Shown piece after piece: positions 20,898 through 49,737 of a DNA stretch of 64,000 nucleotides. Each line of letters starts with the position of its first letter. The stretch's first letter is position 1. Location: positions 104,253 through 168,252 of the forward strand of contig JAKJEM010000001.1 in NCBI GenBank assembly GCA_022705425.1, written 5' to 3'. Below the pieces are notes generated by a model. The model was not told where the DNA came from, did not search any database, and worked only from the letters and a program-made list of their open reading frames with translations. The position numbers were made by a program, and so were the translations under genes. This DNA is from Planctomycetota bacterium (GTDB taxonomy: Bacteria; Planctomycetota; Brocadiia; CAIUPP01).

Positions 20898-20952
20898 GAG
20901 AAGGTGGGCCCTGCTGGATTCGAACCAGCGACCAAGGGATTATGAGTCCCCC
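20898..20952. repeat. 55-bp direct repeat, left copy (attL-like): partial duplicate of the 3' end of tRNA-Met(CAT)
   Basis: Positions 20898-20952 are identical to 54338-54392, which contain the 3' ~50 nt of the tRNA gene at 54343-54418. The tRNA 5' half is absent here, as expected for an attachment-site duplicate created by integration. Confidence 0.7.
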
Positions 20953-21149
20953 CCATCGGCTAATGGTGGCAAGGCTCCCGCGAGTGTCTTACCGCGCAGC
21001 TTACCGCCGGCACTGCCCGAAGACCTCTCCCAAGTGGTGAAGTCCTGGCCCAATCTGCCCGCATCCGTCCGCGCCGGGATCGTGGCGATGGTGAAGGCGA
21101 TCCGGCCATGACATCCATGCGGACGATGCGCCACGGGTCGGTGCGTCCG

Positions 21150-23404: not shown

Positions 23405-26400
23405 ATGACCGCCGCCGTTGCGCCTGCGCTGTTGTTGCCTGAAGTCGGTCAAGCCGTCATCATACGCAACCGTCTCGCCCTGGTGCGGACCGTCGAGCCG
23501 TACGACACGCGCGACCGCACCGGCCGCCTGAATCTCGTGGAAGTCGAGTACCTCGACGACTTCCGCCACCCCTTGAGCGATCACGTGCTCTGGGAGATGG
23601 AACCCCAGAAGCAAATCATCGGCAAGACCTCGCTGCCCGGAGTGGATGCCAACCGCCCCGATCACCCCGCCGCCCTGCAAGCCTTCGTCAATGCCCACCG
23701 CTGGACGCGCCTGAACCGTCTGCGCGGCAGCGAGAGCGTCGAGGAAGAGCCCCTTCTGGGGGTGTGGAACTCCGCCATTCAAGTCCACTCCTACCAGTTG
23801 GAGCCGGTCCTGCGCGCGCTCGACATGCCCCGCGTCAGCCTCATGCTCGCCGACGGCGTGGGCTTGGGCAAGACCATCCAGGCCGGGCTGGTCCTCGAAG
23901 AACTGCTCCTCCGCCGTCGCATCCGGCGCATCCTGGTCCTGTGCCCGGCCATGCTCCAGCGCCAGTGGCAACTGGAGCTTCGGCGCAAGTTCAGCCTGGA
24001 GTTCCAGATCGTTGATTCCGACTCCACCTTCGACATGCGCCGCCGCCTGGGGATAGACACTAACCCCTGGAAAGCCCACCCCCGCATCATCACCTCGATG
24101 GACTACCTGCGCATGCCCGACGTGTTGCAGCAGTTCCTGCAGGCCTCCGGGGCCGATGCCATCCCCGGCAGCGGGCGCGTCGCACCCCACGGCCCGTGGG
24201 ACCTGCTCATTGTGGACGAGGCACACCACTTCGCCCCGCAGAGCGGCGGGCGGGCCAGCCAGCGCACACGCATGCTCCGGGAAATCCGCTTCCTCTTCGA
24301 GCACCGCATCTTCGCCTCCGCCACGCCCCACAACGGCAAGACCGTCTGCTTTACCGGCCTTCTGGAACTCCTCGATCCCGTCCGTTTCCAGATGACCGTC
24401 GAGATGTCGGAGCGCGATCACAGGCACCTGGGCGAAGTCCGCGTGCGGCGGCTCAAGGACGACATCAACAAGGTCTCGCTCCAGCCGCCCTTCGCCGAGC
24501 AACTCCCGCCGGTCGAACTGCCCCTGGCCCTCAACCCGAAGGAAGCCGCCCTTTATGACGCGCTGCGCGAGTACCGCCACAAGGGCGAGGCGGAATTGGC
24601 CTCCGGCAGCCCTTCCGAACGCTGGCTGGGCCGCTTCATCCACTCGTTGTTAACCAAGCGCCTCCTGTCCTGTCCCTATGCCTTTGCCCGCACCTGGTGG
24701 CGGCATGTCGAAGGCGGATCGGGGTCGGTGACCGGCGACCTGGCGGTCATGGCGCGCATCTCGGCCGAGAAGGCCGAGGACGAAGCGCGCAATGACGAGG
24801 AAAAGGCCGCCTATGAGGAAGACGCCGCGCGCTACGGCGGGGCCTGGCTGCGCGCCAGGGGCAAGGCGCTGGCCGCCTCGCAGTCGAAACTCGCCGCCGC
24901 CCTCGAAGCGATGGGCATGGGCCGCAACGCCATCGAGGGCGAGGCCCATCTGGCCGCCCTTGCGCGCAAGTCCGACTCCAAGACCGACGCCCTCGTGCGC
25001 TGGATCAAGGCCCACCTCTTCCAGAACGGCGCGCTGCGCGACGATGAGCGCCTCATCGTCTTCACCGAGTACAAGGAAACGCTCCTTTACCTGACCGAGC
25101 GCCTCCAGCAGGAGGGCTTCGACGAGAACACCCTGCGCCTGCTCTACGGCGGCATGGACACAGGCGATTTCGAGCAGGTCAAGAACGAGTTCGAGGACCG
25201 CGACGCCCCGGTGCGGCTGCTCCTGGCCACCGACGCCGCCTCCGAAGGCATCAACTTGCAGGACTGGTGCCGCTGGATCATCCATTACGATATCCCGTGG
25301 TCGCCCTCGAAAATCCTCCAGCGCAACGGCCGCGTCTCGCGCCACGGCCAGGTGCGCGACGTGAGCATCCATTACTTCCGCTGCAATCAGGAAGAGGACC
25401 TGGAGTTCCTCTGCAAGGTCGCCCAGAAGGTGGATCAGATCCGCGACGACCTCGGCAGCGTCGAGCGCGTCTTCAGCGCCGCCATCGAAAGCCACTTCAG
25501 CGGGCGCAAGGTCCGCCAGAGCGACCTCGACCTGTGGGTCGAGCAGGAATTGGCCGCCAGCCAGGAAAAGAAGGACCTCGGCCGTAACGCCGAGGAGGAC
25601 ACGCGCCGCCTCACCGAGCGCGCCAGCCGATTGCTGGAAGTCACCGATGCGCGTCTGCGCATCTCGCCCGAGGCGCTCGTGGGCCTGCTGGAAACCGCCC
25701 TGCGCGTCGAGGGCGGCGGCGCGCTCGAACCCATCCCCAACAGGCCCGGTTTTTACCGTCTGGCCCCGCCCCCGCGCTGGGAGCGCCTGGTCAGGGAAAC
25801 GCTCACCGTCGGCCCGCGCACCGACCGCATGGAACTCGTCTTCGACTCCGCCCTCGTGGAAGAGGAACACAACCACCGGCGCGTCCTCAAGCTCAAGAAG
25901 CACCAGGTCCTCATGCGCTTGAGCCATCCCGTCATGCGCCAGGCCATGGCCGCGCTCTGTCGCCAGTTGCATGACCCGGCCTCGACAGAGCCCATCTTCC
26001 GCTGGACGGTGGCGGCACTGCACAAGCCGAACTTCGAGGCGCTGATGGCCTTCTTCTACACCGTCACCGCCGTCAACGACCTCCGCGAACCCCTCCACGA
26101 CGAGGTGATGACGGAGGTCTTCCGCGTCGAAGGCGACCGGCTCGCCCCCGTGGAGCGCTCCTTCCGCGAGATGGTCCTCCACGCCGACCTCCTGGCCGTC
26201 CGCTCGCCGGAGCGGCGCGACAAGCTCTGGCAGACCTTCCGCCTGCGCTGGCCGCGCCATCGCGAGGCGCTGGAGCGGTTCCAGAAGGCCCAGGAGAAAG
26301 GTTGGATGGCCGATTTGCAGAAGCGCGCCGATGCCGCCTGCAAGCGCGAGACCGACAGCGCCGCGCAGAGCTACGACTCGCGCCTCAGGGAACTGGCCGA

Positions 26401-26704
26401 GCGCACGCGCGAGCGCGAGATGCGCAGACTGGCCGAGTCGCTCCTTTCCGCCAAAGCCGCCACGATGCAGGCCGCCATCTTCCCCGAGCTGCAGGAGGAC
26501 AAGAAGGCCGGCCTCCAGGCCCTCGAAGAGCAGATCGGCATCCTGAGCCGCGACGTGGAGCTCACGCGCGCGCTCCTCCTGCGCGAGCGCGACTACCGCC
26601 TCAAGCAGCTCCTGCCCGCCCGCTTTGCCCTGCGCGAGGTGCGCGTGCTGCCCCTGGCCGTTGAGTACATCGTCCCGGCCATGCCGGAGGATACCCGTTT
26701 GTGA
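23405..26704 (+). CDS. SNF2-family helicase, DISARM DrmD-like
   Basis: AGGAGC RBS. Walker A LADGVGLGKTIQ. DEAHH box (LLIVDEAHHF). SNF2_N layout. Helicase-C region LIVFTEYKETL...LLATDAASEGINLQ...QRNGRVSRHGQ. Confidence 0.75.
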   Translation: MTAAVAPALLLPEVGQAVIIRNRLALVRTVEPYDTRDRTGRLNLVEVEYLDDFRHPLSDHVLWEMEPQKQIIGKTSLPGVDANRPDHPAALQAFVNAHRWTRLNRLRGSESVEEEPLLGVWNSAIQVHSYQLEPVLRALDMPRVSLMLADGVGLGKTIQAGLVLEELLLRRRIRRILVLCPAMLQRQWQLELRRKFSLEFQIVDSDSTFDMRRRLGIDTNPWKAHPRIITSMDYLRMPDVLQQFLQASGADAIPGSGRVAPHGPWDLLIVDEAHHFAPQSGGRASQRTRMLREIRFLFEHRIFASATPHNGKTVCFTGLLELLDPVRFQMTVEMSERDHRHLGEVRVRRLKDDINKVSLQPPFAEQLPPVELPLALNPKEAALYDALREYRHKGEAELASGSPSERWLGRFIHSLLTKRLLSCPYAFARTWWRHVEGGSGSVTGDLAVMARISAEKAEDEARNDEEKAAYEEDAARYGGAWLRARGKALAASQSKLAAALEAMGMGRNAIEGEAHLAALARKSDSKTDALVRWIKAHLFQNGALRDDERLIVFTEYKETLLYLTERLQQEGFDENTLRLLYGGMDTGDFEQVKNEFEDRDAPVRLLLATDAASEGINLQDWCRWIIHYDIPWSPSKILQRNGRVSRHGQVRDVSIHYFRCNQEEDLEFLCKVAQKVDQIRDDLGSVERVFSAAIESHFSGRKVRQSDLDLWVEQELAASQEKKDLGRNAEEDTRRLTERASRLLEVTDARLRISPEALVGLLETALRVEGGGALEPIPNRPGFYRLAPPPRWERLVRETLTVGPRTDRMELVFDSALVEEEHNHRRVLKLKKHQVLMRLSHPVMRQAMAALCRQLHDPASTEPIFRWTVAALHKPNFEALMAFFYTVTAVNDLREPLHDEVMTEVFRVEGDRLAPVERSFREMVLHADLLAVRSPERRDKLWQTFRLRWPRHREALERFQKAQEKGWMADLQKRADAACKRETDSAAQSYDSRLRELAERTREREMRRLAESLLSAKAATMQAAIFPELQEDKKAGLQALEEQIGILSRDVELTRALLLRERDYRLKQLLPARFALREVRVLPLAVEYIVPAMPEDTRL

Positions 26705-26748
26705 GACAGTCGTGGATTCAGTTGAGCCCCGAACGCAAGGAGCACAGT

Positions 26749-27075
26749 ATGACAAGGACTTCCGATCTTCACTACAGCGCAACTGTGCATACCAATGACA
26801 TCGCGGTCTTGCATTGTCTGCGCGGCTTGGCTGAGTATGCTGAAGAGTCCCATCTCAAGCACGTTGCGTGGGGAGGCACGACACGAGACTATTGGGAGAA
26901 GCACGGTCATTGGGTCAAGTTCCATTTTTCCTCCACACGCTGTCGAGAATGCTTCAAGAACGAGGCGGCACGGCTTCTACCTTCAGGTAGCTGGAACTGG
27001 GTCAAGATGAAGGATGACGATCCTCCTGCGAAGGAAGAAGAGCGCAAGCTCAAGCCACCTCCTGACTTGGAGTAG
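26749..27075 (+). CDS. small hypothetical protein (108 aa) between the SNF2 helicase and the methyltransferase; markedly lower GC
   Basis: AAGGAG RBS is 7 nt upstream of ATG 26749. About 52% GC, against much higher GC in the flanking genes. No recognisable domain. Confidence 0.45.
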   Translation: MTRTSDLHYSATVHTNDIAVLHCLRGLAEYAEESHLKHVAWGGTTRDYWEKHGHWVKFHFSSTRCRECFKNEAARLLPSGSWNWVKMKDDDPPAKEEERKLKPPPDLE

Positions 27076-27087
27076 GACAGGCTGGTT

Positions 27088-30000
27088 GTGAACAAGAAGA
27101 ACGAAACGCTCGGCACCCTCCATGCGTGGTGGTCGCGCCTGCGCCATCAGGGGCTGCTGCTCTCGCCGGTCGTCTTCCTCGACGACGACCGCTTCCCGTG
27201 GCTTTCGGACGCCCCCGCCGCCCCGGACTGGAACGCCCGGCGCAAGCTCAAAGACGCCTGGACGCGCTTTCTCGCCCAGGTGGACAGCGGCGACGAGCGC
27301 GCCCCCGAGGAAGACGCCGTCCTGACCTGGACCGATGCCCTCACCGGCTTCCTCGGCATCCCGTCAGGCCAGGTGGCCAGGCAGGGCCACATCCCCGGCA
27401 GGCTCACCGCCGCGATCCGCATCGGCTCGCGCACCGAGACGATCCGCCCGCACCGCGTCGTCTTTGCCGACGCCGCGCAGGAGGTCCCCGCCCTTCTGGT
27501 CATGGCCGATACCTCGCCCCACGTGGGCCGGGGACGCGGCCGCACCGCCTATGCGCGCTTTGTCGAGCTCCTGCGCGCCACGGGCCGGCGTCTGGGTCTG
27601 TTGACGAACGGCTCGCAGTTCCGGCTGATCTACGCCGGGTTGGATTTCGAGTCCTGGTGCGAATGGGACGCCGACCGCTGGTTCACCGATGCCGAAGGGG
27701 CCGAGGAACTGAATGGGCTGCGCCGGTTGATCGGCCCGAAGGCCCTGGAAGCCTCGAAAGACGGCGTGCCGGCGCTTCTGGCGGCCGTGGAAGATTCGCG
27801 CAAGCGCCAGGCCGATCTCTCCAACGTCCTGCGCGAGAATGTCCGCCAGGCGGTCGAACTGCTCCTGGAGGAGGTCTCCGCCGCCCATCGCACCCACCCG
27901 GCGCTCTTCAGGGAGTTGGCCGCCGGCCCCGACGGCACATCGCTCCATGACGCCGAAGCGCAGGAGGCCATGCTCCAGGCCGGCGTGCGCGTGGTGATGC
28001 GCCTGGTTGTCTGTCTCTTTGCCGAGAGCCGCAAGCTCCTGCCGGTGGACGATCCCATCTACGCCCAATCCTACGGCGTGCGCGCCCTCTACGAGCTCCT
28101 CGACAGCGCCGCGCGCGCCGAGGGCGGCACGCGCGCTCTCGCCGACCGGCGCATGGCCTGGCCCAGGCTCATGGCCCTCTTCCGCCTCGTCCACGCCGGA
28201 TCGGCCCACGGCAGCTTCCCCGTGCCCGCCTACGGCGGCGCGCTCTTCCGTCCGGGTGAAGACGCCCACGAGGACCCCGTCTCGCGCGCACTGTACCTCC
28301 TGGAGCACGCCGTCCCCGTGCGCGACGAGGCGATCCTGCTCGTCCTGCAAAAGCTCCTCCGCGGGCCGCTGCCGGTCGTGCGCGGGCGGACCCGGACCTT
28401 CGTCGAAGGCCCCGTGGACTACACCAACCTGCGCACGGAGTTCATCGGCCTGATCTACGAAGGCCTGCTCGACTACCGCCTCAAGCGCGCCTCGGAGGAG
28501 TCCGGCCCGCAGGTCTTCCTCAACATCGGACGCGAACCCGTCCTGCCGCTGCGCCGTCTCGAGGCGATGCTCCACACCGACCGCAACGGCCTGAAGGACC
28601 TCCTGACCACGCTGCGCAAGGAGAAGGTCGCCGCGTCGGTCTCCTCCGATGAAGAACCCGAAGCCGAGGAAGCCGATTCGTCCGACGCGGCCGAGCCGCC
28701 CGATTCGGAGGAACCCGTCCTCCAGGACGCCTCGCCCGTCGTCACCACCACCAGCGCCCCCGACTACCTCGACGCCGACGCCCGCGCCCGGCAGTGGGCG
28801 CGCGAGGCGGCGCTGCTGCTGGGGCTTGTCGGCCGGAAGCGAAAGGGCGAGCCGGAGACGGAGTACCGCAAGCGCGTGGACGACGAGGCCGACCGCCTGA
28901 TCAAGCGCGTCGTGCCGGTGGGCGATTTCTACCTCGTGCGCGCGGGCAATACGCGCAAGGGCACCGGCACCTTCTACACCCGCCCGCAACTGGCCGTGCC
29001 CACCGCCCACCGCACCTTGCAGCCCCTCTGCTACGACAAAGCCCCCGACGGCCATCTCATCCCGAAGACGCCGCAGGAAATCCTCGCCCTCAAGGTCTGC
29101 GATCCCGCCTGCGGCAGCGCCTCCTTCCTCGTGGCCGCCCTGCATTATCTGACCGACGCGCTTTACGCCGCCCTCGTCGTCCACGCCGATATCGAAAACC
29201 CGCGCCGGGCCGGACAGGCCACCCTCCCCCTCGGCCGCAGGCGCACCGGCAAGGGCGAGGAGGAACTCCTGCCCTTCCCGCCCGACGACCCGCAGCGCGG
29301 CGAAAGCTTCACCGACGTGGTCAAGGCCCTCCTGCGCCGTCACGTGGTCGAACGCTGCATCTACGGCGTGGACATCAACCCGCTGGCGGTCGAGTTCGCG
29401 CGCGTGTCCCTCTGGATCGAAACCTTCGACAAGGACCTGCCCTTCTCCTTCCTCGACCACAAGGTCAAGGTCGGCAACGCCCTCGTCGGCTGCTGGCTGC
29501 GCCACATGCTCGACTATCCCCTCAAGGCCTGGGAGCGCAACGGCGGCGACGACCCCGACGCCCGGACCAGCGGCCCGCGCACCGAGCGCATCGAGACCTT
29601 CCTGAAAGGCCCCGTGGAAGCCAACGGCCGCCGCAGCGGCGACGGCATCATCAAACAGGAAATGCGCCGGATCATCGCCGGCCACTTCGCCGGGCATCTG
29701 TTCGGCGGGGAGGCCACGCCGGAGCAACTCCTCGTCGGCGCGCGCAAGTTCCACGAGACGATGCATGAAGTGTCGGTGCGTTCTCCCGAGCTGAAGGAGA
29801 AGATGTACGCGCACTTCGAGCACGGCCCGGCCCTCCAGCGCCTCAAACGCGCCATGGACGAATGGTGCGCCGTCTGGTTCTGGCCCATGGACGAGGAATC
29901 GGCCAGGCACGCGCCCACGCCGGAAACCTTCCACGCCTCCGATGTGGCCCATCCGCCGTCGTCCGGTGTGGCGCAGCCGCCGTTGTCCGGTGTGGCGCAG

Positions 30001-32364
30001 CCGCCCTCGGCTGCGGAATCCAGAGAGCAGACAGTGCCCTTGTCCGATGTGGCGCATCCGCCGTTGTCCGGTGTGGCGCATCCGCCGTTGTCCGATGTGG
30101 CGCAGCCGCCCTCGGCTGCGGAATCCAGAGAGCAGACCGCCTCACAGCCGGGGGCGGCTGTGCCACACACGGCCACGCCACAGCCGGGGGCGGCTGTGCC
30201 ACACACGACCCCCCGCGAAAGCCTCATCGCCCGCCTTCGCCGCGACCTCCGTTTCTTCCACTGGGAACTCGAATTCCCCGACGTCTTCACCCCTGCGCGC
30301 AGCGGCTTCGACGCGGTCCTCGGCAACCCGCCGTGGGAGACAGTTCAGCAGGAGAGCATGGAGTTTTTCTCGGAGTTTGATCCGCTCTACAGGACCTATG
30401 ACAAGCAGTCAGCACTCCGAAGACAGCAGGAGCTCTTCCGCGCCCTGCCTGAAGTGCGACGCTTGTGGCTCGACTATTGCGGGCGGTTCGCCTCCATGAA
30501 TAACTGGGTCCGCAATGCAGCGAATCCGTTCAACATGGTCTTGGATCGAGGCAGGAAGGGTGAACAGCTTGCCAGCGACTGGGCGTGTGAAAGGAAGAAG
30601 CGCATCGGCTATGCGCTGCCCGATGTACCCTTCCGTTGGCAGGGTTCGGGCAAGAATTACACTTACAAACTCTTCCTTGAGATGTCTCACGCCTTGATCC
30701 ACGACACGGGCCGCCTCGGCCTGATCGTTCCCTCCGGCCTTTACACCGACGCCGGCACCCGGGACCTGCGCACCCTCTTCCTGGAGCAGGGCACGTGGGA
30801 GTGGCTCTTCAGCTTCGAGAACCGGCGCAAGATTTTCGACATTGACAGCCGCTTCAAGTTCGCCCCGACGATTGTGGATCGGCGGCGCACCGGCGCGCCG
30901 ATGCAGGCCGCCTTCATGGTCCACGACGTCGCCGCCTGGGAGCGTCCCGACCCGCCCGTCTTCCCCTTCGACACGAGCCTCATCCCCCTCTTCTCCCCGC
31001 GCAGCAAATCCCTGCCCGAAGTCCGCACCCGGCGCGACCTCGACATCTGCCGCAAGATCTACGAGCACTCCATCCGCATCGGCGATAACGCCCCCGGATG
31101 GGAGATCACCTACGCCCAAGAATTCAACATGACGAGTGACTCCCGGCTCTTCCCCCCGCGCGAGAAGTGGGAGGCGAAGGGCTACAAGCCGGATGTCTTC
31201 GGGCGGTGGATCGGGCCGGAGGGGGATGTGGCGCTGCCGTTGTATCAGGGGACCATGCTTGGCCAACTGAACTTCAGTGAGCAAGGATTTGCATCCGGTA
31301 GCGGCCGAAGCAATCACTGGGAGATCATTCCCTGTGATAGATCGATAGTCCTGCCCAAGTACATGATCGGTGCCTCAGCCGCGCCCAGCAAGTCAAAGAT
31401 GTCTTGCGCGAAACTGGCCTTTCGTGACATCACCAACGCCACGAACGAACGAACATTCATAGGTGCAGTCCTGTGCGGTCTGCCCTGCGGGAACACCGCG
31501 CCCGTTCTCGTACCCAAGCAGCGGCCTCTCCGGAGAGCACTCCTCTTCTCTGCCGCGCTTTGCACCTTGACGAGTGACTACGCGGCGCGAATGAGAATTG
31601 GCGGAACGCATCTGAACTTCTTCATCGCGCAGGACATGCCAGTGCCGTTCGGGAACATCCCACAGGGTGCGGAAGTCTGTCTGGTGAGAATCGCCGCGTG
31701 CCTCAACTTCATCCACCGCCGTTTCGCCCCCGAATGGCTGCGGCTTCGCGCGCTCTATCCGGAGTTGGGGAAGCGGGAGTGGAAGTACTGGTGGGCGGTG
31801 ACGGAGGCGGACCGGCTGCGGCTGCGGGTGGAGATTGACGCGCTGTGCGCGGAGCTGTACGGGCTGGAGCCCGACGACTTCGACTGGATCGTGCGCGACG
31901 ACCCGAGCGACCCGAAGGGCTTCTGGCGCGTGGACAAGGAGCTGCCCTACCGCGAGCGCCTCACCGGCCTCGCCGCCGCCGCCTTCCGCGCCCTGAAGGC
32001 CGGCCAATGGTCCGCCGACTCCGCCGCCGCCCTTTCCAACGACGACTTCTTTGCCCTTCTCGGCATCCCCGAACTCACCAGCGAGCGCGCCGCAAAGGCC
32101 AAGGGCCTCTCCGAGCCGTTGATCCGCAAGCGCAAGGGCTGCCACCTCTGGCAGCCCGAAAAGTTCCCCGCCGCCGACCCGCGCCACGGCTGGACCTGGT
32201 CCCACTGCCACGCCGACGCCGTCGCGCTGCTGGGGAGCGAGGAGGCGGTGAAGGATTACGTTGAGGGCAAGACGCCGCCGGTGGCCGAGCCGGAAAAAGC
32301 CCGTAAGACCAAGCGGAAAGCCAAGATACACCCCGATCAGGCCGGGCTCTTCCGGGAGTCCTAG
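27088..32364 (+). CDS. N6-adenine DNA methyltransferase (gamma-class, Eco57I/PglX/DrmMI-like), 1758 aa
   Basis: Motif I is VCDPACGSASFLVAALHYL. Motif IV is VLGNPPWE. The N-terminal region is PglX/type-IIL-like. A C-terminal TaqI_C-like region is present. An in-frame tandem-repeat insert lies between motifs I and IV. Confidence 0.8.
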   Translation: MNKKNETLGTLHAWWSRLRHQGLLLSPVVFLDDDRFPWLSDAPAAPDWNARRKLKDAWTRFLAQVDSGDERAPEEDAVLTWTDALTGFLGIPSGQVARQGHIPGRLTAAIRIGSRTETIRPHRVVFADAAQEVPALLVMADTSPHVGRGRGRTAYARFVELLRATGRRLGLLTNGSQFRLIYAGLDFESWCEWDADRWFTDAEGAEELNGLRRLIGPKALEASKDGVPALLAAVEDSRKRQADLSNVLRENVRQAVELLLEEVSAAHRTHPALFRELAAGPDGTSLHDAEAQEAMLQAGVRVVMRLVVCLFAESRKLLPVDDPIYAQSYGVRALYELLDSAARAEGGTRALADRRMAWPRLMALFRLVHAGSAHGSFPVPAYGGALFRPGEDAHEDPVSRALYLLEHAVPVRDEAILLVLQKLLRGPLPVVRGRTRTFVEGPVDYTNLRTEFIGLIYEGLLDYRLKRASEESGPQVFLNIGREPVLPLRRLEAMLHTDRNGLKDLLTTLRKEKVAASVSSDEEPEAEEADSSDAAEPPDSEEPVLQDASPVVTTTSAPDYLDADARARQWAREAALLLGLVGRKRKGEPETEYRKRVDDEADRLIKRVVPVGDFYLVRAGNTRKGTGTFYTRPQLAVPTAHRTLQPLCYDKAPDGHLIPKTPQEILALKVCDPACGSASFLVAALHYLTDALYAALVVHADIENPRRAGQATLPLGRRRTGKGEEELLPFPPDDPQRGESFTDVVKALLRRHVVERCIYGVDINPLAVEFARVSLWIETFDKDLPFSFLDHKVKVGNALVGCWLRHMLDYPLKAWERNGGDDPDARTSGPRTERIETFLKGPVEANGRRSGDGIIKQEMRRIIAGHFAGHLFGGEATPEQLLVGARKFHETMHEVSVRSPELKEKMYAHFEHGPALQRLKRAMDEWCAVWFWPMDEESARHAPTPETFHASDVAHPPSSGVAQPPLSGVAQPPSAAESREQTVPLSDVAHPPLSGVAHPPLSDVAQPPSAAESREQTASQPGAAVPHTATPQPGAAVPHTTPRESLIARLRRDLRFFHWELEFPDVFTPARSGFDAVLGNPPWETVQQESMEFFSEFDPLYRTYDKQSALRRQQELFRALPEVRRLWLDYCGRFASMNNWVRNAANPFNMVLDRGRKGEQLASDWACERKKRIGYALPDVPFRWQGSGKNYTYKLFLEMSHALIHDTGRLGLIVPSGLYTDAGTRDLRTLFLEQGTWEWLFSFENRRKIFDIDSRFKFAPTIVDRRRTGAPMQAAFMVHDVAAWERPDPPVFPFDTSLIPLFSPRSKSLPEVRTRRDLDICRKIYEHSIRIGDNAPGWEITYAQEFNMTSDSRLFPPREKWEAKGYKPDVFGRWIGPEGDVALPLYQGTMLGQLNFSEQGFASGSGRSNHWEIIPCDRSIVLPKYMIGASAAPSKSKMSCAKLAFRDITNATNERTFIGAVLCGLPCGNTAPVLVPKQRPLRRALLFSAALCTLTSDYAARMRIGGTHLNFFIAQDMPVPFGNIPQGAEVCLVRIAACLNFIHRRFAPEWLRLRALYPELGKREWKYWWAVTEADRLRLRVEIDALCAELYGLEPDDFDWIVRDDPSDPKGFWRVDKELPYRERLTGLAAAAFRALKAGQWSADSAAALSNDDFFALLGIPELTSERAAKAKGLSEPLIRKRKGCHLWQPEKFPAADPRHGWTWSHCHADAVALLGSEEAVKDYVEGKTPPVAEPEKARKTKRKAKIHPDQAGLFRES
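29938..30210 (+). repeat. in-frame tandem repeat block (21-nt units plus larger ~36-90-nt units) inside the methyltransferase gene
   Basis: Repeated tccgRtgtggcgcaKccgccg units, the duplicated cagccgccctcggctgcggaatccagagagcaga block, and the duplicated cagccgggggcggctgtgccacacacg block. They encode SDVAHPP/SGVAQPP/.../PQPGAAVPHT repeats. Confidence 0.8.
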
Positions 32365-32409
32365 GCCATGTGCGGACAGCGCGCGGCAGAAAATCGCTGT
32401 GTGGGCTTC

Positions 32410-32438
32410 TTGACAAAAGGCTATCATATGATAGTATT
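32410..32438 (+). promoter_or_regulatory. putative sigma70-like promoter with a 14-bp perfect palindrome operator upstream of the mqsR-like gene
   Basis: TTGACA (32410-32415), a 16-17-nt spacer, then TAGTAT/AGTATT. The perfect palindrome CTATCATATGATAG (32421-32434) overlaps the spacer and -10. GGAG RBS lies 6 nt before ATG 32454. Confidence 0.35.
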
Positions 32439-32453
32439 ACCTTGGAGCGGGGC

Positions 32454-32834
32454 ATGCCGGTGGCCAGTCGAGCACAGGTAGCTGCGTTCCTTCACGTCTT
32501 CAAGAGCTGCTTCAGGCTCGATCGCTTCTCTGTCAAAGACAGACAGAAGAACCGGCAAGCCCTCATTGCCCTGGCGATGGACCCTGCGGAGCGCCGGGAT
32601 GCGCTTCTCGGTCTCCAGCCGGACGATTACGTTGCCGGGCCCAAGCCGGACGATACGGACGACACCAGGGAAGTCTGGGAGTTCGGCAGGACCATCGGGA
32701 CGACAGAGGTTTACATCAAAGTGCGCGTGGTCCAGGATCCGAAGAAGAAGAATGTCCACCACGCGGTGGTGTGGTCATTCCATCCGGCCGAGTTCCGAAT
32801 GAAGTATCCGCTGAGAGGAGGGAGTGGGTCATGA
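32454..32834 (+). CDS. mqsR: MqsR-family toxin (type II TA ribonuclease toxin, RelE/MqsR fold)
   Basis: The C-terminus ...EVYIKVRVVQDPKKKNVHHAVVWSFHPAE matches the MqsR C-terminal signature (QVYLKITVIHD...LIVSFKEK). The toxin-first gene order matches mqsRA. GC is low. Confidence 0.55.
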   Translation: MPVASRAQVAAFLHVFKSCFRLDRFSVKDRQKNRQALIALAMDPAERRDALLGLQPDDYVAGPKPDDTDDTREVWEFGRTIGTTEVYIKVRVVQDPKKKNVHHAVVWSFHPAEFRMKYPLRGGSGS

Positions 32835-33853
32835 AGGTTTTCTGCCCCACCTGTGAGGAGTACCGGGAGACCCGGACGGTTGAACGGAAGGAATCGTACA
32901 AGGTGCGCGGCCGGAAGGTCATCGTGCCGGTGACCGTCACGGCGTGCGTGAAGTGCGGGGAGGCCGTGGGAGGCGACGAGAAGGATAAGGAGGTGCTGGC
33001 GGCTGTCTATGCCGAATACCGGCGTCAGAATGATCTCCTGTCCCCCGATCAGATACAGGAAATCCGCCGCCGCTATCGTCTGAGCCAGCGGTCCTTCGCC
33101 GTGCTGCTCGGAATGAGTGAGGCGACGATCAACCGGTATGAACAGGGCGCGCTACAGGAGCCGTCCCATGACACCGCCATCCGCGCTTGCCAAGACCCGG
33201 CATTCGTTCGAGGACTCCTTGAAAGGCGCGGCAACCAGTTGACCGAGTGGCAACGGAAACGGACGGAGGACGCCCTTGCGGGGCAGGCAGTGCCTGAGTC
33301 TCGCTGGGTGGACATCGCAGGCAACGTCAATCTGCTGGCCATGAGCAATGAAGTATCCGTTCAGACCGGGTTCCGCCGGTTCGACTTTCGGCGTTTTGCA
33401 GCCGTGGTCAACTGGTTCTGCTGCGACTTCGGCGGCGTCTCCAGGACGGTTATCAACAAGCTGCTCTTCTATGCGGACTTCTTGAATTTCAAGACGGCGA
33501 CTGTATCGCTGACGGGGAGTCCCTACCGGAGGCTCCAATACGGCCCGGTACCGTCCGATTACGACTTCCTGCTGGGCCAGATGGAGGCACAGGGTCTCAT
33601 CGTGTGCAGGGAAGTCGGCTATCCCACCGGCTATACAGGATTCGAATACAAGCCGGGCTCCCGAGCCGGCGCTGTTGAGGTGACGTTCACCGATCACGAG
33701 AAAAGGGTGCTTGCCAGAGTTGCGAAGGCATTCAAGGGTATGACGGCAAAGGCCATCTCGGACCGGTCACATCGGGAATCGGCTTGGCGAAATACTCCCG
33801 ACAAGCAGTTGATCTCCTACCAGGAGGCTTCCACGCTGTCTCTGAATCTGTGA
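32831..33853 (+). CDS. antitoxin: MqsA-like (N-terminal Zn-ribbon plus XRE HTH) fused to a C-terminal Panacea (DUF4065/SocA-like) domain
   Basis: ATGA overlap with the toxin stop. MKVFCPTCEEY...CVKCGE (CxxC...CxxC). Then ...LSQRSFAVLLGMSEATINRYEQG (HTH_XRE). Then ...VINKLLFYADFLNF...YRRLQYGPVPSDYDFLLGQ (Panacea/DUF4065 signature). Confidence 0.6.
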   Translation: MKVFCPTCEEYRETRTVERKESYKVRGRKVIVPVTVTACVKCGEAVGGDEKDKEVLAAVYAEYRRQNDLLSPDQIQEIRRRYRLSQRSFAVLLGMSEATINRYEQGALQEPSHDTAIRACQDPAFVRGLLERRGNQLTEWQRKRTEDALAGQAVPESRWVDIAGNVNLLAMSNEVSVQTGFRRFDFRRFAAVVNWFCCDFGGVSRTVINKLLFYADFLNFKTATVSLTGSPYRRLQYGPVPSDYDFLLGQMEAQGLIVCREVGYPTGYTGFEYKPGSRAGAVEVTFTDHEKRVLARVAKAFKGMTAKAISDRSHRESAWRNTPDKQLISYQEASTLSLNL

Positions 33854-33865
33854 GGGCGCATCGGC

Positions 33866-36800
33866 GTGCCGATTAATCCTGTCCATTTCGCCCACAACGT
33901 CTGCGACGAATTCCTGCGGTACATCTTCTCCGCCTTCCCGCTGACCGACCCCGACCTGGCGGCGCAGGCGCGGAAGATGTTCGAGCGGCCCTCGTCGCTG
34001 GGCATTCCGCTGGTGCAGGGACCGTATGTGTCGCTGTCCAGGGCCTTTGCCCAGGGCGACCCGGTCGCCGATCTCGCGGCGCGCGGGATGTTGCATCCGG
34101 TCATGCCGGGGCTGATCGGCTACCCCACCCTGTGGGTTCATCAGCAGCGCGTCTTTGAAGCGGTGCGCCGGGGCGAGCACGTGCTGGTGGCTACGGGCAC
34201 CGGCTCGGGCAAGACGGAGGCCTTTCTCCACCCCATTGTGGACGACCTGCTGCGCCAGCGCGATCAGGGGGTGACGGCGGGCCTGTCGGCGGTGCTGGTC
34301 TATCCCATGAACGCCCTGGCCAACGACCAGTTGGAGCGCCTGCGCGACATGCTGGCGGGGACAGGCGTCACCTTCGGACAGTGGGTGGGCACCACGCCGG
34401 ACAAGGAGCGGGACGTCGCCATCGAGCAATTCCCGTCCTCCTCCCGGCAGGCCTATCTGGCGGAGCGCAAGAAGCGCAAGGACGCGGCGCTCGGCGAGAA
34501 CCGTGCGGCGCGGCCCATCGCGCCGCTGGAGGAGTGCCGCAGCGAGGAGGATATTCGCGCGCGGAAGCCGCGCATCCTCATCACGAACTACCGCCAGCTT
34601 GAGATTCTGACCACGCGTTGGCCGGATGTCTCCCTCTTCGCCGGGGCACCGCTGAAGTACCTGGTCTTCGACGAGGCGCACACCTACGAAGGCGCGGTCG
34701 GGGCCGAGGTCGCCTGTCTCATCCGGCGCGTCCGCGCCCTGGCGGGCAAGACTCCGGATGAAGTGACCTGCATCGGCACTTCCGCCACCCTGGCCGACCC
34801 CGACAAGGCCAAGGGCGACCATGAGGCGGCGGCCAAGCGTTTCGCCTCGCGGTTTTTCGGCGTGGACGAGGACAAGGTCACCCTCGTGGGCGAATCGTAC
34901 GTGGCGCGCGAGTGGCCTGGGGGGCGCATCAAGACGGCCCCGCCGCTGGGCGATGGAATGGAACGGGTGAACCGGCTCCTCAAGGCCATGTCCGATCCGG
35001 TGGATCTCCCCGCGCTCAAGGCCGTGATCGAGGAACTGACCGGCCAGATGATTGACCTGGGCGAGGACTGGGCGCGATCGCTCTTCCAGCACCTCCTGGC
35101 CAATGAGTACGTCTATCAGACCACGCAGGTTCTGAGCGAACCGAAGCTTCTCTCCGACGCCGCGTGGCAGACCTCGCAACGCCTGGCCCCGGACCGACTG
35201 GAGCGGGGCGCGCGCGCCGACGGCGAACTGCTCGCCTATTTGCTCCTGGGCGCAGCCGCCCGGCAGGAGGGCGAGGCGCTTCTGCGCCCGAAGGTGCATT
35301 TCTTCATCCGCGGCCTGGATGAGATGACCGTGGCACTCGACGGCGACCCCGACGCCCTTCAGGTGCGGCTCTTCATGTCCCTGGCCGAAGCGCGCGGAGC
35401 CTGCCCCAACCGCCGGGACGACGCCTTCCTCCCCGTCCTCACCTGCCGCAACTGCGGCCAGCACTTCTTCGAGCGCCACTTTCAGAACCTCGAACTCTCC
35501 GCCGGTTCCCAGGGCGACCTGAAGGACTTTGCCTGCGGCAACGCCACGGAGGGCGGCGATGGGCAATCCAATGCCGTCTGGCCCACCGCACCGGAGGGCG
35601 GGGGAACGCGCCTGGTGATGACCAACCGCCTTCTGGAGGAGGCCGACGGGCAGGGGGGAGCCAAGACGGCGCGATGGCCCCGTGGACATGTCTGCCGTCA
35701 GTGCGGCGCGTTGCACCGCAATCCCGGCGACGCCTGCAGCGCCGACGGCTGCGGCCACAAGGCCCCGCTCCTGCCGCTGTTGGCCTTCGGCAAGGAACTG
35801 AGTTCCTGCCCGTCCTGCGGCACACTGAGTTTTCGCATCGGCGGACGGGTGATCGAGCCGGCCCGAAGAGTTCAGGCGGTCACCGTCGCCGACGTGCATA
35901 TTCTCGCCCAGGCGATGATCAACGCCGCGCCCAGGGACCATAAGAAGCTCATCATCTTCGCCGACAGCCGCCAGGATGCGGCCTTCCAGGCGGGCTGGAT
36001 GCAGGACCACGCCCGGCGCATCCGCCTGCGCCACATGATGCACGATGCCATCACCAACGCGCCGGGACCGGTCAAGCTCGACGAGATCGTAGATCGCCTC
36101 ATGGGAGTCTTCCGCAAGGACCGCAGCCTGATTGACGCGCTGCTTCCGGAGTTGACCGGCGAGGAGGCTCAGGCGGTCTTCGGGCACAACGTCTGGGTAC
36201 CCGTTCACCGCGCGCTGCGGTACATGGTCTTGCGCGAGTTCACGACCGGCGTGCGCCGCACCGACTGCCTGGAGGCCATGGGCCTGGCGCAGGTCTCTTA
36301 CGAGAGACTGACGCCGGAGAATCCGGACGTGCAGGAATGGGCTTCGGTTGTCGGCATCACTCCCGCCGATGCGGTCAACGCCATCTCCCTCATCCTGGAC
36401 ATCTGGCGACGCAACCGAATCCTCTTCGTGGAGAAGGAGCCGATCTTCTCTCAGTTCCACGCCCGGGACAATGAGTACATCCAGGTCGGCTTGTTGGCGC
36501 TGCGCGACTTCCGCCCGGAAGGTCTTCTCCTGAAGGCCGGTGAGCAGGACAAGTACGCGCGCGGCGTGAAGGCTCCGCGCGGACAGTCGGCGGTGCAGGC
36601 GCTCCTCAAGAAGTGGACGCCGGACTCCGGCAAGGTGGACCTCGACGCCGCCATCGGTCTGCTTTGGGAGTTATTGACGGAACGTATCAAGCTCCTGTCC
36701 AAGGTCGTCTTGCGTTCACAGAAGGACACCCCGCTCGGGGGCGACGTATGGCAGGTCAATGCCGATACGGTGCGTGTCGCGAAGAGCAACCAACGCGCGC

Positions 36801-39238
36801 GCTGCAAGACCTGTCAGCGCATCACGACGCGCCCGGCTCCCCGGTCAGCCTGCACGCGTCATCACTGCCCCGGCAGTACCGTGACGCTGGAGCCGGACAA
36901 GGACAACTATGACGTGTGGCTTATGCGGCGGCCATTCGTCATGGTCAGCGCCGAGGAACACACGGCCCAGGTACCCGGCGAGGTTCGCCTCAAGGTCGAG
37001 CAGGATTTCAAGTCGCGCAAGGGCCGGACCAACTGCCTTGTGGCCACCCCGACGCTGGAAATGGGCGTCAACATCGGCGACCTGGACATGGTCCTCATGC
37101 GCAACGTTCCGCCGCGCGCGAGCAATTACTGGCAGCGTGCCGGACGCGCGGGCCGCGAAGAGCACATGGCGGTCGTCGTGACGTACTGCCGGCGCTCGCC
37201 GCATGACCGCTATTTCTTTGAAGACCCGCTGCGCCTGCTGGGTGGGGCCATTGAAGCGCCGGTGTTCAACCTCCGCAACCCCCTCATGGTCGGCAAGCAC
37301 ATCCGATCAGCCATCTTGTCGGAACTGCTCCTGCGAGCGCGTGGCAACGGCCCCGATGCGCGGAAGATTCATGACGTCCTTGTCCCGTGCTTCCCGACCT
37401 TCATTCGCGACTACCTCCTCGACGAGCAGAACCGCTTCCGCGAGACGCCCCCCGGCGTGGCATCGCTTCAGCATCTCCTCGACACCATGAAAGACCCCCT
37501 GACAGAGCGGCTGCTTCAACTCTTCGCTCAACATTGGCCCGAAGATGCCCGGGAACTCACCACGCGCGCAGCCATTGTTCAGATCGTGGAGGAGACGGCG
37601 GCCGCGCTCGACGGTGTTCTGGGTCGCCTGCATCGCCGTCTGGCGTGGGCGCTGAAGACTCAAGCCGATATCCACCGCAAGAAGGAGGCGGGCCTGATTG
37701 ACCGCGAGGAAGATCAGTTGTTGCGTCGTTGCGACGACTACATCAATCGGATCATGCGCCGCGACAGTTCCACATACACCCTGACGGTGCTGGGCGTGGA
37801 GGGCTTCCTGCCCGGCTACGGCGTCTATGAAGGCGGCGTGGTGGCTTCGGCGAGGGCCGGATTTGCCCGCCATCCAGGCTCACGCTCCTTTGAACTATCG
37901 CGAAGCAACGTCGTGGCTCTTCGCGAGTTCGTGCCGGGCAATCGCCTCTACGCCAATCGGGGCACCTTCTACGTATCGCGCTTCCACCTGGCTGCCGATG
38001 AATCGAGCAAACTGCGCACCTTGCGCGTTGACCCCGAGAAGGGCACGGTCAGTGACCACACCGGCAACGCCGCTTACGGCCAGTCCGCCGCACAGATCAT
38101 TGATGCGTTGCCGCTGACGGACCTGGACCTGACGCACGAGAGCCGGATCAGCGAAGACGAGAGCCTGCGTTTTTCCATGCCCGTGGAGATCGTCGGTCGC
38201 CTGCGCCGCCGATGCCGGGGCGGAAAGGCCTTCAAGATTGGCCAGGTGGAGGCCCACCACCTCAAAGGGCAGGGCATCGAGTTGGTCAACCTGGGCGAAA
38301 CCGGACGCGTCAAACGCAAGGAACTTGGCCACTGGATCTGCTCGATCTGCGGGGCTGCCAAGACGCCCTATGCTGTTCCGGCTGAAATCAATCACTTCAT
38401 CCAAGGGCACAAGGACCGTTGCGGTCGTGAACCCGTCCGCCTGGCTCTGACCGCCCAAGCCGACGTTGACATGATCCAGTTCCATGCCATGGAGAACCCG
38501 GCCAAGGGAATCAACATCGGCGAAGCGCTACGCACCGCCGCAGCGCGCGTCTTGGACATGGGGCCGGAGGACCTCCAGTTGCTCGTGGTGCAGAAGCCCG
38601 ATGACACACTCGACCTCCTGCTCTACGACCCCATGCCCGGTGGTTCGGGCCTGCTCGACCAGATGCTTGGGCGCTGGCCGGAGATTATCACTGCGGCCAG
38701 GAACCTTCTGGCCAACTGCCCACTGGCTTGCGAGGCCGCGTGCTATTGCTGCCTGAAGACTTTCCGCAACCAATCGCACCACGAAGCGCTTGACCGCCAC
38801 AAGGCTTTGGAGTATCTCCAAGCGCTTGACCACACGCCGCAGAGCTATCGTGACATCGGCCCGCAGTTTGAGGAAGAATCGGCCGGTCAAGGGACGCCGT
38901 CGAATACGGCGGAGGCCCGCCTGGAGCGCATTCTGCTCGACCATCACTTCCCCGTGGGGAAGGCCCGCCGGCGGATTACGGCGAGCGCGGGGCTCTCTAC
39001 GGTGCCTGACTGGCTCCACGAGCCGTCCAAGACCGCTGTGTACCTCGACGGCATGAGTCGCAACCTGCACGGCGATCCGAAGACGGCCCAGCGGGATCAA
39101 CTGATCCGGCAGATGCTGGAACTGGACGGGTACAAAGTTGTAGTTGTTCAGTCACGTGACTTGGATGATCCGGAGGCACTGCGACGACACCTGAAGAACA
39201 TCGCTCAGGCTTTGGGCCGAGGGGATCTGATCAGTTGA
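33866..39238 (+). CDS. 1790-aa DEAD/DEAH-box helicase with Cys-rich (DUF1998-like) region and C-terminal DUF559/Vsr-like endonuclease domain; DISARM DrmA/DrmB-like fusion (or DruE-like)
   Basis: GTG start. Walker A VATGTGSGKTEAF. DEAH box (LVFDEAHTYEG). HELICc ...LVATPTLEMGVNIGDLDMVLMRNVPPRASNYWQRAGRAGR. Multiple CxxC clusters (CRQCGALH..., CPSCGTL, CSICGAAK, CPLACEAACYCC). C-terminal ...SKTAVYLDGMSRNLHGDPKTAQRDQLIRQMLELDGYKVVVV resembles DUF559 (AVxxDGxxH...D..RD..L...G). Confidence 0.65.
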   Translation: MPINPVHFAHNVCDEFLRYIFSAFPLTDPDLAAQARKMFERPSSLGIPLVQGPYVSLSRAFAQGDPVADLAARGMLHPVMPGLIGYPTLWVHQQRVFEAVRRGEHVLVATGTGSGKTEAFLHPIVDDLLRQRDQGVTAGLSAVLVYPMNALANDQLERLRDMLAGTGVTFGQWVGTTPDKERDVAIEQFPSSSRQAYLAERKKRKDAALGENRAARPIAPLEECRSEEDIRARKPRILITNYRQLEILTTRWPDVSLFAGAPLKYLVFDEAHTYEGAVGAEVACLIRRVRALAGKTPDEVTCIGTSATLADPDKAKGDHEAAAKRFASRFFGVDEDKVTLVGESYVAREWPGGRIKTAPPLGDGMERVNRLLKAMSDPVDLPALKAVIEELTGQMIDLGEDWARSLFQHLLANEYVYQTTQVLSEPKLLSDAAWQTSQRLAPDRLERGARADGELLAYLLLGAAARQEGEALLRPKVHFFIRGLDEMTVALDGDPDALQVRLFMSLAEARGACPNRRDDAFLPVLTCRNCGQHFFERHFQNLELSAGSQGDLKDFACGNATEGGDGQSNAVWPTAPEGGGTRLVMTNRLLEEADGQGGAKTARWPRGHVCRQCGALHRNPGDACSADGCGHKAPLLPLLAFGKELSSCPSCGTLSFRIGGRVIEPARRVQAVTVADVHILAQAMINAAPRDHKKLIIFADSRQDAAFQAGWMQDHARRIRLRHMMHDAITNAPGPVKLDEIVDRLMGVFRKDRSLIDALLPELTGEEAQAVFGHNVWVPVHRALRYMVLREFTTGVRRTDCLEAMGLAQVSYERLTPENPDVQEWASVVGITPADAVNAISLILDIWRRNRILFVEKEPIFSQFHARDNEYIQVGLLALRDFRPEGLLLKAGEQDKYARGVKAPRGQSAVQALLKKWTPDSGKVDLDAAIGLLWELLTERIKLLSKVVLRSQKDTPLGGDVWQVNADTVRVAKSNQRARCKTCQRITTRPAPRSACTRHHCPGSTVTLEPDKDNYDVWLMRRPFVMVSAEEHTAQVPGEVRLKVEQDFKSRKGRTNCLVATPTLEMGVNIGDLDMVLMRNVPPRASNYWQRAGRAGREEHMAVVVTYCRRSPHDRYFFEDPLRLLGGAIEAPVFNLRNPLMVGKHIRSAILSELLLRARGNGPDARKIHDVLVPCFPTFIRDYLLDEQNRFRETPPGVASLQHLLDTMKDPLTERLLQLFAQHWPEDARELTTRAAIVQIVEETAAALDGVLGRLHRRLAWALKTQADIHRKKEAGLIDREEDQLLRRCDDYINRIMRRDSSTYTLTVLGVEGFLPGYGVYEGGVVASARAGFARHPGSRSFELSRSNVVALREFVPGNRLYANRGTFYVSRFHLAADESSKLRTLRVDPEKGTVSDHTGNAAYGQSAAQIIDALPLTDLDLTHESRISEDESLRFSMPVEIVGRLRRRCRGGKAFKIGQVEAHHLKGQGIELVNLGETGRVKRKELGHWICSICGAAKTPYAVPAEINHFIQGHKDRCGREPVRLALTAQADVDMIQFHAMENPAKGINIGEALRTAAARVLDMGPEDLQLLVVQKPDDTLDLLLYDPMPGGSGLLDQMLGRWPEIITAARNLLANCPLACEAACYCCLKTFRNQSHHEALDRHKALEYLQALDHTPQSYRDIGPQFEEESAGQGTPSNTAEARLERILLDHHFPVGKARRRITASAGLSTVPDWLHEPSKTAVYLDGMSRNLHGDPKTAQRDQLIRQMLELDGYKVVVVQSRDLDDPEALRRHLKNIAQALGRGDLIS

Positions 39239-39436
39239 TGGCGACCACGTTGTGGCTCCCGCTAACGATGGTGCTTTCCATCTCTTCACTTTCGCGTATG
39301 GGGCATCCGTGATCGGGCTGGAACACAGGCCCCGTTGTCGCAACGTCTCAATCGCATTCGCGTTAGCCACTTTGATCCGGTTGGCCATACACATCCTCCT
39401 TTCCCAGAGGATGCTACGGCCCTACCGGCTCCTTCC

Positions 39437-39634
39437 TCAAAGTGGCTGTATTTCAACTGTCCCTACGTGGCTGCATTTGCCCGTCCGCCGACACCACGGG
39501 CAGAACTGGTTCGTCGTGGTCCCGTGCTGCCGGCAGGCCTCCGACACCGGGCTCTCCCCCCGCAATCCCTCCAGGACGATGGACACCTTCTCCGATGCCG
39601 TGAAGGTCCTCCGTCCGCTCCTTTCCAGACGCAT
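39437..39634 (-). pseudogene. remnant of an IS3-family transposase orfA (HTH part), truncated
   Basis: MRLERSGRRTFTASEKVSIVLEGLRGESPVSEACRQHGTTTNQFCPWCRR matches the IS3/IS911 OrfA N-terminus (RRxFTxEfKxxIVLEglrGE.SvxEvcRxhGIsxxxFyxWrrq). It then diverges into a stop. No orfB and no inverted repeats are seen. Confidence 0.4.
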
Positions 39635-39831
39635 CGCGCGGGGGTATATACTGGCCGGGTGCCGCACTCTTGTTCCGCCACCTGCCGCACTCTTACGCCG
39701 GCGTTTGCAGCCAGAGGCAAGCGCACCGCTCTTCACCCCCTCATCTGTCCCACTTCGCGGAGAAGCTACACATATGGCTCCTTGCCGACGCAGAATCCGG
39801 CGGGCACATGGCGCGTGGAAACGCGGCACAG

Positions 39832-45949: not shown

Positions 45950-45972
45950 CGTTGTCTCCTTCGCCCGGAGCG

Positions 45973-46638: not shown

Positions 46639-46649
46639 GGGCAAGCCTC

Positions 46650-49687: not shown

Positions 49688-49737
49688 GTGCCTCTCCTGC
49701 CCAAACGACGGCATTCTACCACACGCTACGGACGGCA

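Follow-up and report, generated by a model that had tools for sequence, protein, structure and literature searches.

A likely three-gene ARMADA type I locus on a tRNA-integrated island of a Planctomycetota bacterium

What kind of anti-phage system is encoded by three large genes at positions 23405-39238 of a Planctomycetota contig, if the first two resemble genes of class 1 DISARM and the third resembles the helicase of Druantia? The window analysed here is the whole 64,000-nt stretch of contig JAKJEM010000001.1 in which these genes lie, and a first-pass annotation of its raw sequence had proposed a new variant of DISARM. Our analysis suggests instead, with a probability of roughly 0.85, that the genes form an intact ARMADA type I anti-phage locus in the order ArmA-ArmB-ArmC, carried on an island that is integrated at a tRNA-Met gene. 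ARMADA is a relative of DISARM and Druantia that was first described in 2025, being named by Bell et al. in work published since September of that year (bioRxiv 10.1101/2025.09.15.676423; PMC12458937). The locus is a further example of this known system and not a new kind. The assignment draws on which genes are present, on their domain folds and intact motifs, and on conserved synteny and clade membership, which we take in turn.

The three genes have the coordinates, sizes and order (SNF2 helicase, methyltransferase, 1790-amino-acid helicase) that the first-pass annotation gave them, and together with two domains of the third gene they are as follows:

23405-26704, + strand: armA, SNF2/RapA-type (BrxHII/DrmD-like) helicase, 1099 amino acids (aa) (Pfam, NCBIfam, PADLOC, motifs)
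27088-32364, + strand: armB, large PglX/DrmMI-like N6-adenine DNA methyltransferase, 1758 aa (Pfam, PADLOC, NPPW)
33866-39238, + strand: armC, YprA-family DEAD/DEAH helicase-nuclease, 1790 aa (Pfam, PADLOC, homologue, motifs)
38522-38755, + strand: MZB/DUF1998 zinc-binding domain of ArmC, aa 1553-1630 (PF09369)
38903-39214, + strand: putative Vsr/DUF559-fold PD-(D/E)xK nuclease domain of ArmC, aa ~1680-1783 (predicted fold, invariant residues)

All three open reading frames (ORFs) are unbroken and full length, with a GC content at third codon positions (GC3) of 0.82-0.89, which is what real genes show in a genome of ~69% GC. Three components define ARMADA, namely a helicase of the BrxHII/RapA-like type, a methyltransferase resembling PglX and a YprA-like helicase that ends in a Vsr nuclease; in type I the gene order is reversed in some lineages (PMC12458937). 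In the published phylogeny of YprA helicases, the clade that received the name ARMADA groups with Druantia and away from DISARM (PMC12458937). We took the tree from that phylogeny and placed the window ArmC in it by way of a listed homologue, MBI2806633.1 (P0042), which is 67% identical and covers 100% of the window helicase. This protein, encoded on contig JACPPF010000101.1, appears as an "ARMADA Type I helicase" in Table S1 of Bell et al. (PMC12458937), and because so close a full-length homologue carries that designation, we assign the window locus to ARMADA type I in ArmA-ArmB-ArmC order. The gene content agrees: an ArmA-type SNF2 helicase, an ArmB with NPPW, and an ArmC with a fused DUF1998 domain and a C-terminal domain of Vsr type are all present.

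ArmA carries the Pfam domains SNF2-rel_dom and Helicase_C, a Walker A motif (GLGKT) at aa 153 and a DEAH box at aa 271. It scores 688.4 bits on the NCBIfam model DISARM_DrmD (NF038317), above the equivalog cut-off of 610, and its PADLOC matches include both DrmD (1.4e-204) and BrxHII (8e-70); it also matches RapA (2.6e-38) and E. coli ArmA (28% identity, E 1e-45). ArmB bears the Pfam signatures Eco57I (1.2e-20), MmeI_Mtase and N6_Mtase, and matches the PADLOC models REase_MTase_IIG (5.5e-292; this top label, "Type IIG REase-MTase", denotes the family only) and DrmMI (7.5e-132). Its catalytic NPPW lies at aa 1080 (nt 30325-30336) and aligns with N971 of E. coli ArmB, to which the protein is 23% identical (E 6e-29). 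A search of PDB sequences with ArmB returned zero matches, which speaks neither for nor against a nuclease domain in this protein. The first-pass description of the two genes as DrmD-like and as a DrmMI-like N6-adenine methyltransferase was therefore sound.

ArmC combines the Pfam domains DEAD, Helicase_C and MZB (the same as DUF1998; 2.6e-11, 44.5 bits with a cut-off of 24.2) with the motifs GSGKT at aa 113, DEAH at aa 269 and QRAGRAGR at aa 1090. Six CxxC motifs are found along the protein; those at aa 527, 610, 648 and 980 occupy the positions expected for the core insertions of ARMADA and Druantia helicases, and one at aa 1492 falls within the OB-CON-DUF1998 region, matching the type I description. 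The best PADLOC matches, to DruE3 (3.9e-113) and DruE1 (1.6e-107), are spread along the protein, whereas the PADLOC DrmA models (5.4e-20) are restricted to aa ~1039-1126, which is the Helicase_C core. On the NCBIfam DrmA models, ArmC reaches only 17.6 bits (NF038325, cut-off 950) and 16.8 bits (NF038326, cut-off 999). We conclude that this helicase resembles Druantia DruE and not DrmA, and that it is no DrmA/DrmB fusion by descent. The first-pass annotation had left the choice between "DrmA plus DUF1998/DrmB-like" and "DruE-like"; the fused DUF1998 and the likeness to DruE stand, and the DrmA part falls.

The C-terminus of ArmC appears to be a nuclease domain of the Vsr/DUF559 fold, recognisable by fold and not by hidden Markov model (HMM). 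An alignment of its last 131 aa with 38 homologues was followed by structure prediction, and the model shows a structured core at aa ~1680-1783. A fold search with the model gave 3hrl as the top match, followed by other PD-(D/E)xK enzymes; a profile search of PDB sequences gave a lone weak match, 3r3p (E 0.081). Invariant in the alignment are E1683, P1714-D1715, Y1726, D1728-G1729, H1735-G1736, D1744 and R1748. Their pattern, PD...(D)G....H...D, is the Vsr/DUF559 signature, so the fold named in the first-pass annotation was correct. Bell et al. also report 3hrl as the top match of the type I Vsr domain (PMC12458937). Druantia helicases are similarly built, as large YprA-family proteins that have zinc modules rich in Cys, DUF1998 and, at the C-terminus, a domain of nuclease fold, but the Vsr domains of DruE types I and II are predicted to be inactive, whereas the window ArmC keeps the signature residues, and DruE of type III bears phospholipase D (PLD) domains. 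About one fifth of the close ArmC homologues (P0007, P0015, P0042 and others; ~1890-1923 aa) carry about 110 more residues after the Vsr-like domain, and this tail may represent another nuclease-like domain, perhaps a degenerate one.

The same three genes are found together elsewhere. A scan of one genome per species yielded 80 related loci (L001-L080) from Planctomycetota, Cyanobacteria, Myxococcota, Burkholderiales, Bacteroidota and others, the ArmC homologues being mostly named Planctomycetota. In all related loci with sufficient upstream sequence, ArmA, ArmB and ArmC lie on one strand and in one order, and since the same genes, order and strand recur across many phyla, the arrangement is not due to chance. 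With ARMADA type I as published, the window locus shares the SNF2 BrxHII/RapA-like helicase, the PglX-like N6-adenine methyltransferase, the YprA-like helicase, which has DUF1998 and a single Vsr-type nuclease at its C-terminus, and a place on a tRNA-integrated island. It differs in that its gene order is the "reversed" one, reported for archaea and cyanobacteria (PMC12458937), whereas the hits obtained here are mostly named Planctomycetota, and in that an MqsR/MqsA-Panacea pair and an ORF of 108 aa, both described below, are embedded in it.

The sole experimentally validated relative is E. coli ARMADA type II (ArmABCD of NCTC 12900 and of EDL933 OI-172; PMC12458937, PMC13463889), for which we retrieved the EDL933 armABCD locus (L082) as the reference. 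This system gives broad, direct and non-abortive protection that requires all four genes including ArmD, and its defence is abolished by mutating Walker A or B of ArmA, NPPW of ArmB, or Walker A or B of ArmC (PMC12458937, PMC13463889). The counterparts of all these residues are intact in the window, and the two loci have in common the A-B-C order, GLGKT/DEAH in ArmA, NPPW in ArmB, GSGKT/DExH in ArmC and a Vsr-type nuclease on ArmC. They differ in that E. coli ArmC, at 2113 aa, contains an EEP-like domain in addition and has two Vsr domains in place of one, and in that ArmD, a RelE-GajB-like protein with a GajB/UvrD-like helicase part, is essential in E. coli and absent from the window.

Searches of the window by tblastn with E. 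coli ArmD or with the ArmD-like protein of a related locus (L003) found no trace of the gene, and the ~590 nt on the 3' side of armC (39239-39831) hold no coding signature, no Rfam match and no ArmD remnant. An ORF of 220 aa at 39252-39914 was considered as a gene and rejected: its GC content is flat across the three codon positions (0.63/0.58/0.63), homologues are lacking and the protein collection does not contain it. Among relatives with at least 2.5 kb of sequence downstream of ArmC (n=51), nine (~18%; L003, L022, L027, L043, L047, L053, L057, L068 and L076) encode, directly 3' of ArmC, an ArmD-like UvrD-family protein of ~700 aa that matches E. coli ArmD from end to end at 33-45% identity; the other 42 do not. 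L003 is one of the nine, and its helicase is the very one that Bell et al. list as type I. As nine of these 51 relatives have ArmD and the window does not, we conclude that ArmD is optional in this clade and is not exclusive to type II, to which the gene was assigned in the original description (PMC12458937).

Several points weigh against assigning the window locus to a working ARMADA type I system. Its proteins are only 22-30% identical to ArmA, ArmB and ArmC of E. coli, the experimentally validated set, and the window ArmC, at 22-30% identity to its E. coli counterpart, is matched about equally well by E. coli DruE. The literature searched contains experimental tests of E. coli type II only and none of type I, and the locus lacks the ArmD that type II cannot do without. 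Bell et al. label the type I Vsr domain "active?" (PMC12458937). Pfam models searched with the C-terminal 181 aa of ArmC at E <= 1 gave neither DUF559 nor Vsr, and confidence in the structural model is only moderate (pLDDT, the predicted local distance difference test score, is 73.8). Moreover, the ARMADA/Druantia lineage is defined by BrxA-like, beta-barrel ZBM and MarR-like insertions, which would here be represented just by CxxC motifs at the expected positions.

The foremost competing explanation is the first-pass proposal, that this is a new class 1 DISARM variant in which one protein unites DrmA and DrmB and a fused DUF559/Vsr domain takes the place of the PLD nuclease DrmC. Class 1 DISARM comprises DrmD, DrmMI, DrmA, DrmB and DrmC, and the window order of a DrmD-like gene, a DrmMI-like gene and a helicase is the class 1 order, with a DUF1998 helicase module and a nuclease following the first two genes; the ArmA score above the DrmD equivalog cut-off and the DrmMI match of the methyltransferase also favour it. 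The helicase, however, belongs to the Druantia/ARMADA branch, which the published phylogeny sets apart from DISARM (PMC12458937), and it is matched along its length by DruE models. The matches to the DrmA sequence models are confined to the Helicase_C core, and the NCBIfam DrmA scores are far below their cut-offs. DUF1998 is fused to the helicase and there is no separate DrmB. As the first-pass annotation also stated, PLD DrmC is missing: no PLDc match was obtained in any scanned protein, and no HxKxxxxD motif occurs in ORFs of at least 80 aa between 15 and 45 kb. None of DrmA, DrmB and DrmC could thus be recovered, and we regard this variant as quite unlikely. Of the models on which the proposal was to be checked, SNF2, Helicase_C, N6_Mtase/Eco57I and DUF1998 were found and PLDc was absent as foreseen, but DUF559 was not detected. 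A fused Vsr-fold domain does stand where DISARM has DrmC, but the architecture had already been published as ARMADA. What the first-pass annotation caught from raw sequence, the DrmD and DrmMI genes of DISARM beside a Druantia-like helicase bearing its own Vsr-fold nuclease, is the architecture that defines that system.

The three genes are not contiguous, and the intervening features are these:

26749-27075, + strand: inserted 108-aa ORF between armA and armB (GC3 0.62, AAGGAG before ATG)
32410-32437, + strand: predicted sigma-70-like promoter, TTGACA-16-TAGTAT with an extended -10 TG (consensus match only)
32454-32834, + strand: MqsR-fold (RelE-superfamily) toxin, 126 aa (structure search, homologue names)
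32831-33853, + strand: antitoxin, 340 aa, with an MqsA-type zinc ribbon, HTH_3 and a C-terminal SocA/Panacea domain (Pfam, NCBIfam)

The 108-aa ORF has a good ribosome binding site (AAGGAG) and a GC3 of 0.62, as against 0.86-0.89 in its neighbours. Its single homologue family (66% identity, 98 aa) lies in an unrelated context, beside a PIN/MazE pair, and tblastn found no match to it in the 80 related loci; it is a small insertion outside the conserved system. The longer ORF at 26701-27075 shares its frame with armB, and could be read as an N-terminal extension of armB truncated by a stop. We rejected this reading because the insert has its own ribosome binding site and ATG, low GC3, no match in relatives and a lone homologue family in an unrelated context, and because armB homologues begin at the same point as the window armB.

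Between armB and armC lies the toxin-antitoxin (TA) module that the first-pass annotation had noticed. The toxin ORF is best started at ATG 32454, with the sigma-70-like site directly 5' of it, and its stop overlaps the antitoxin ATG (32831) as ATGA. The toxin has no match in Pfam, NCBIfam or PDB-profile searches; a structure search assigns it the MqsR fold, and of its homologues (n=72, ~123 aa) two are labelled MqsR family toxin by NCBI. The antitoxin matches SocA_Panacea (7.8e-18), MqsA_antitoxin (2e-12) and HTH_3 in Pfam, and scores 94 bits (cut-off 61.8) on the NCBIfam MqsA family model TIGR03830. An MqsR-fold toxin beside an antitoxin with an MqsA-type zinc ribbon and a helix-turn-helix makes this an MqsRA-type module. 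It departs from the known MqsRA systems and Panacea (PanA/SocA) antitoxins in that its antitoxin adds a C-terminal Panacea domain, its toxin is missed by the Pfam and NCBIfam MqsR models, and the pair sits inside a defence operon.

The first-pass annotation had called this interruption not typical of described DISARM loci, a judgement that comparison with relatives overtakes. In 63 related loci the armB-armC gap is at most 222 nt in 24 and 0.36-5.2 kb in 39 (~60%). The cargo includes DarT/Macro, PemK, BrnT, HepT, HicA, AAA_21/AAA_15 ATPases, DUF3800, kinases, a PD-(D/E)xK protein and, in two cases, PLDc_2, and the inserts of different relatives are mutually unrelated. Because 39 of the 63 loci hold such variable inserts at the same junction, a TA interruption there is normal for this family, and the junction, which Bell et al. 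do not mention (PMC12458937), looks like an insertion hotspot for cargo. The promoter-like site, the ATGA overlap and the variable cargo of relatives suggest that the window pair is autonomous cargo with its own predicted promoter and not a core component; most likely it acts as an addiction module or a back-up abortive module. A further idea, which we put forward only tentatively and consider doubtful, is that the junction is a dedicated hotspot that repeatedly recruits TA and defence modules, the MqsR-like RNase being functionally coupled to ARMADA and so more than a selfish passenger. By analogy with the RelE-like domain of type II ArmD, the RNase might then provide an abortive back-up when ArmC is blocked.

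Does this layout betray a decaying or non-functional ARMADA remnant, split by the 108-aa ORF and the TA pair and lacking defence? ArmD is essential in E. coli ARMADA II (PMC12458937, PMC13463889) and traceless here, two foreign insertions lie inside the operon, and the predicted TA promoter may decouple armC from armAB. On the other hand, each of the three large ORFs keeps its full length, a coding GC3 and its catalytic motifs; ArmD is likewise missing from 42 of 51 relatives, and 39 of 63 also have inserts at the armB-armC junction. Because most relatives thus lack ArmD and carry junction inserts, the layout is the norm of the clade and no sign of decay, and we hold a remnant to be very unlikely. 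Finally, a Druantia-type system (type III-like), with the DruE-like helicase-nuclease as the effector and the upstream genes as unrelated neighbours, is hardly credible: the 1790-aa protein does have its best PADLOC matches among DruE models and is about equally similar to E. coli DruE and ArmC, and some Druantia III-like helicases bear a Vsr domain (PMC12458937), but the window has no homologue of the partner genes (DruH of type III, DruA-D of type I or DruM/F/G of type II) and no neighbour with a PADLOC Druantia match, the helicase is accompanied by the SNF2 and methyltransferase genes in every related locus whose upstream sequence is long enough, and the close homologue MBI2806633.1 is classed as ARMADA type I (PMC12458937).

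For the ARMADA type I locus, then, we infer a likely substrate, self/non-self rule, nuclease activity and defence phenotype by analogy with the genetics of E. coli ARMADA II and with two related systems, DISARM and Druantia III. ArmB would mark host DNA through its N6-adenine methyltransferase activity (NPPW), and would probably be needed for restriction too, as is PglX in BREX. ArmA, an SNF2 translocase, would act jointly with ArmC, a YprA-type helicase that may carry several zinc modules and an OB-CON-DUF1998 canopy. ArmC would probably load onto invading DNA that is unmodified, at intermediates that are single-stranded or forked; replication intermediates that are forked or contain single-stranded DNA are reportedly engaged by DruE of Druantia III, and DrmAB of DISARM has been proposed to recognise single-stranded DNA overhangs. 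ArmA and ArmC would then translocate on this DNA, driven by ATP, and the fused Vsr-type nuclease of ArmC would nick or cut it, so that the phage would be cleared directly and non-abortively.

The setting of the locus is a 33.5-kb island (20898-54392), with a GC content of 63.6% inside and 69-70% in the flanks, whose cargo comprises the ARMADA locus, a type III CRISPR-Cas system and a protein with a PBECR3 domain. ARMADA has been published as cargo of tRNA-integrated elements (PMC12458937), and the island fits that picture. Its other features are:

20898-20952, unstranded: left copy of a 55-bp perfect direct repeat (attachment site; repeat search), with a weak Rfam tRNA remnant at 20905-20978
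21150-23096, - strand: 648-aa protein with a PBECR3 (Barnase/EndoU/ColicinE5-RelE-like nuclease) domain, divergent from armA
39832-41124, - strand: 430-aa ORF beside the CRISPR array, with a C-terminal R-x4-H (RNALAH) and a weak HEPN_Swt1 match
41131-43510: CRISPR array, 29 copies of the 37-nt repeat GTTTCAATCCCTTTTTCGTCAGGTCAATGCTTCCTAC
43982-44980, - strand: Cas1
45973-46821, - strand: RAMP protein
46650-47546, - strand: Csm2-like protein
47231-49795, - strand: Cas10 with an HD domain
49738-50895, - strand: Cas6-domain protein
52890-54407: tyrosine integrase ORF at the tRNA end
54338-54392, unstranded: right copy of the 55-bp repeat, corresponding to the 3' portion of a tRNA-Met gene (54343-54418, - strand; repeat and tRNA search)

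In the CRISPR array 27 repeats are perfect and two, at the low-coordinate end, are degenerate; the array accounts for the low GC content and the spurious ORFs of this stretch. The type III CRISPR-Cas gene set occupies 43982-50895 on the - strand. The 430-aa ORF at 39832-41124, for which no Pfam model scores above threshold, was considered as an ARMADA accessory and rejected for a role as a candidate CRISPR-associated accessory gene, because it adjoins the array and has the R-x4-H motif and the weak HEPN match. Judging from its sequence it may be an accessory RNase of the Csx1/Csm6 (HEPN) type, and we suspect that its N-terminus is CARF-like. The PBECR3-domain protein has no counterpart adjoining ARMADA in the 80 related loci.

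In summary, the window adds one more example of ARMADA, in a lineage where most of the helicase homologues bear the name Planctomycetota, and its compact and intact three-gene version is a reasonable candidate for testing type I experimentally. What remains is of modest interest and lies in the cargo hotspot between armB and armC, the optional ArmD of a "type I" clade and the MqsR/MqsA-Panacea pair. The presence of ArmD-like genes after "type I" helicases in ~18% of relatives blurs the division between types I and II. Furthermore, if the embedded modules are functionally coupled to ARMADA, this would bear on how layered defence is organised within single operons.

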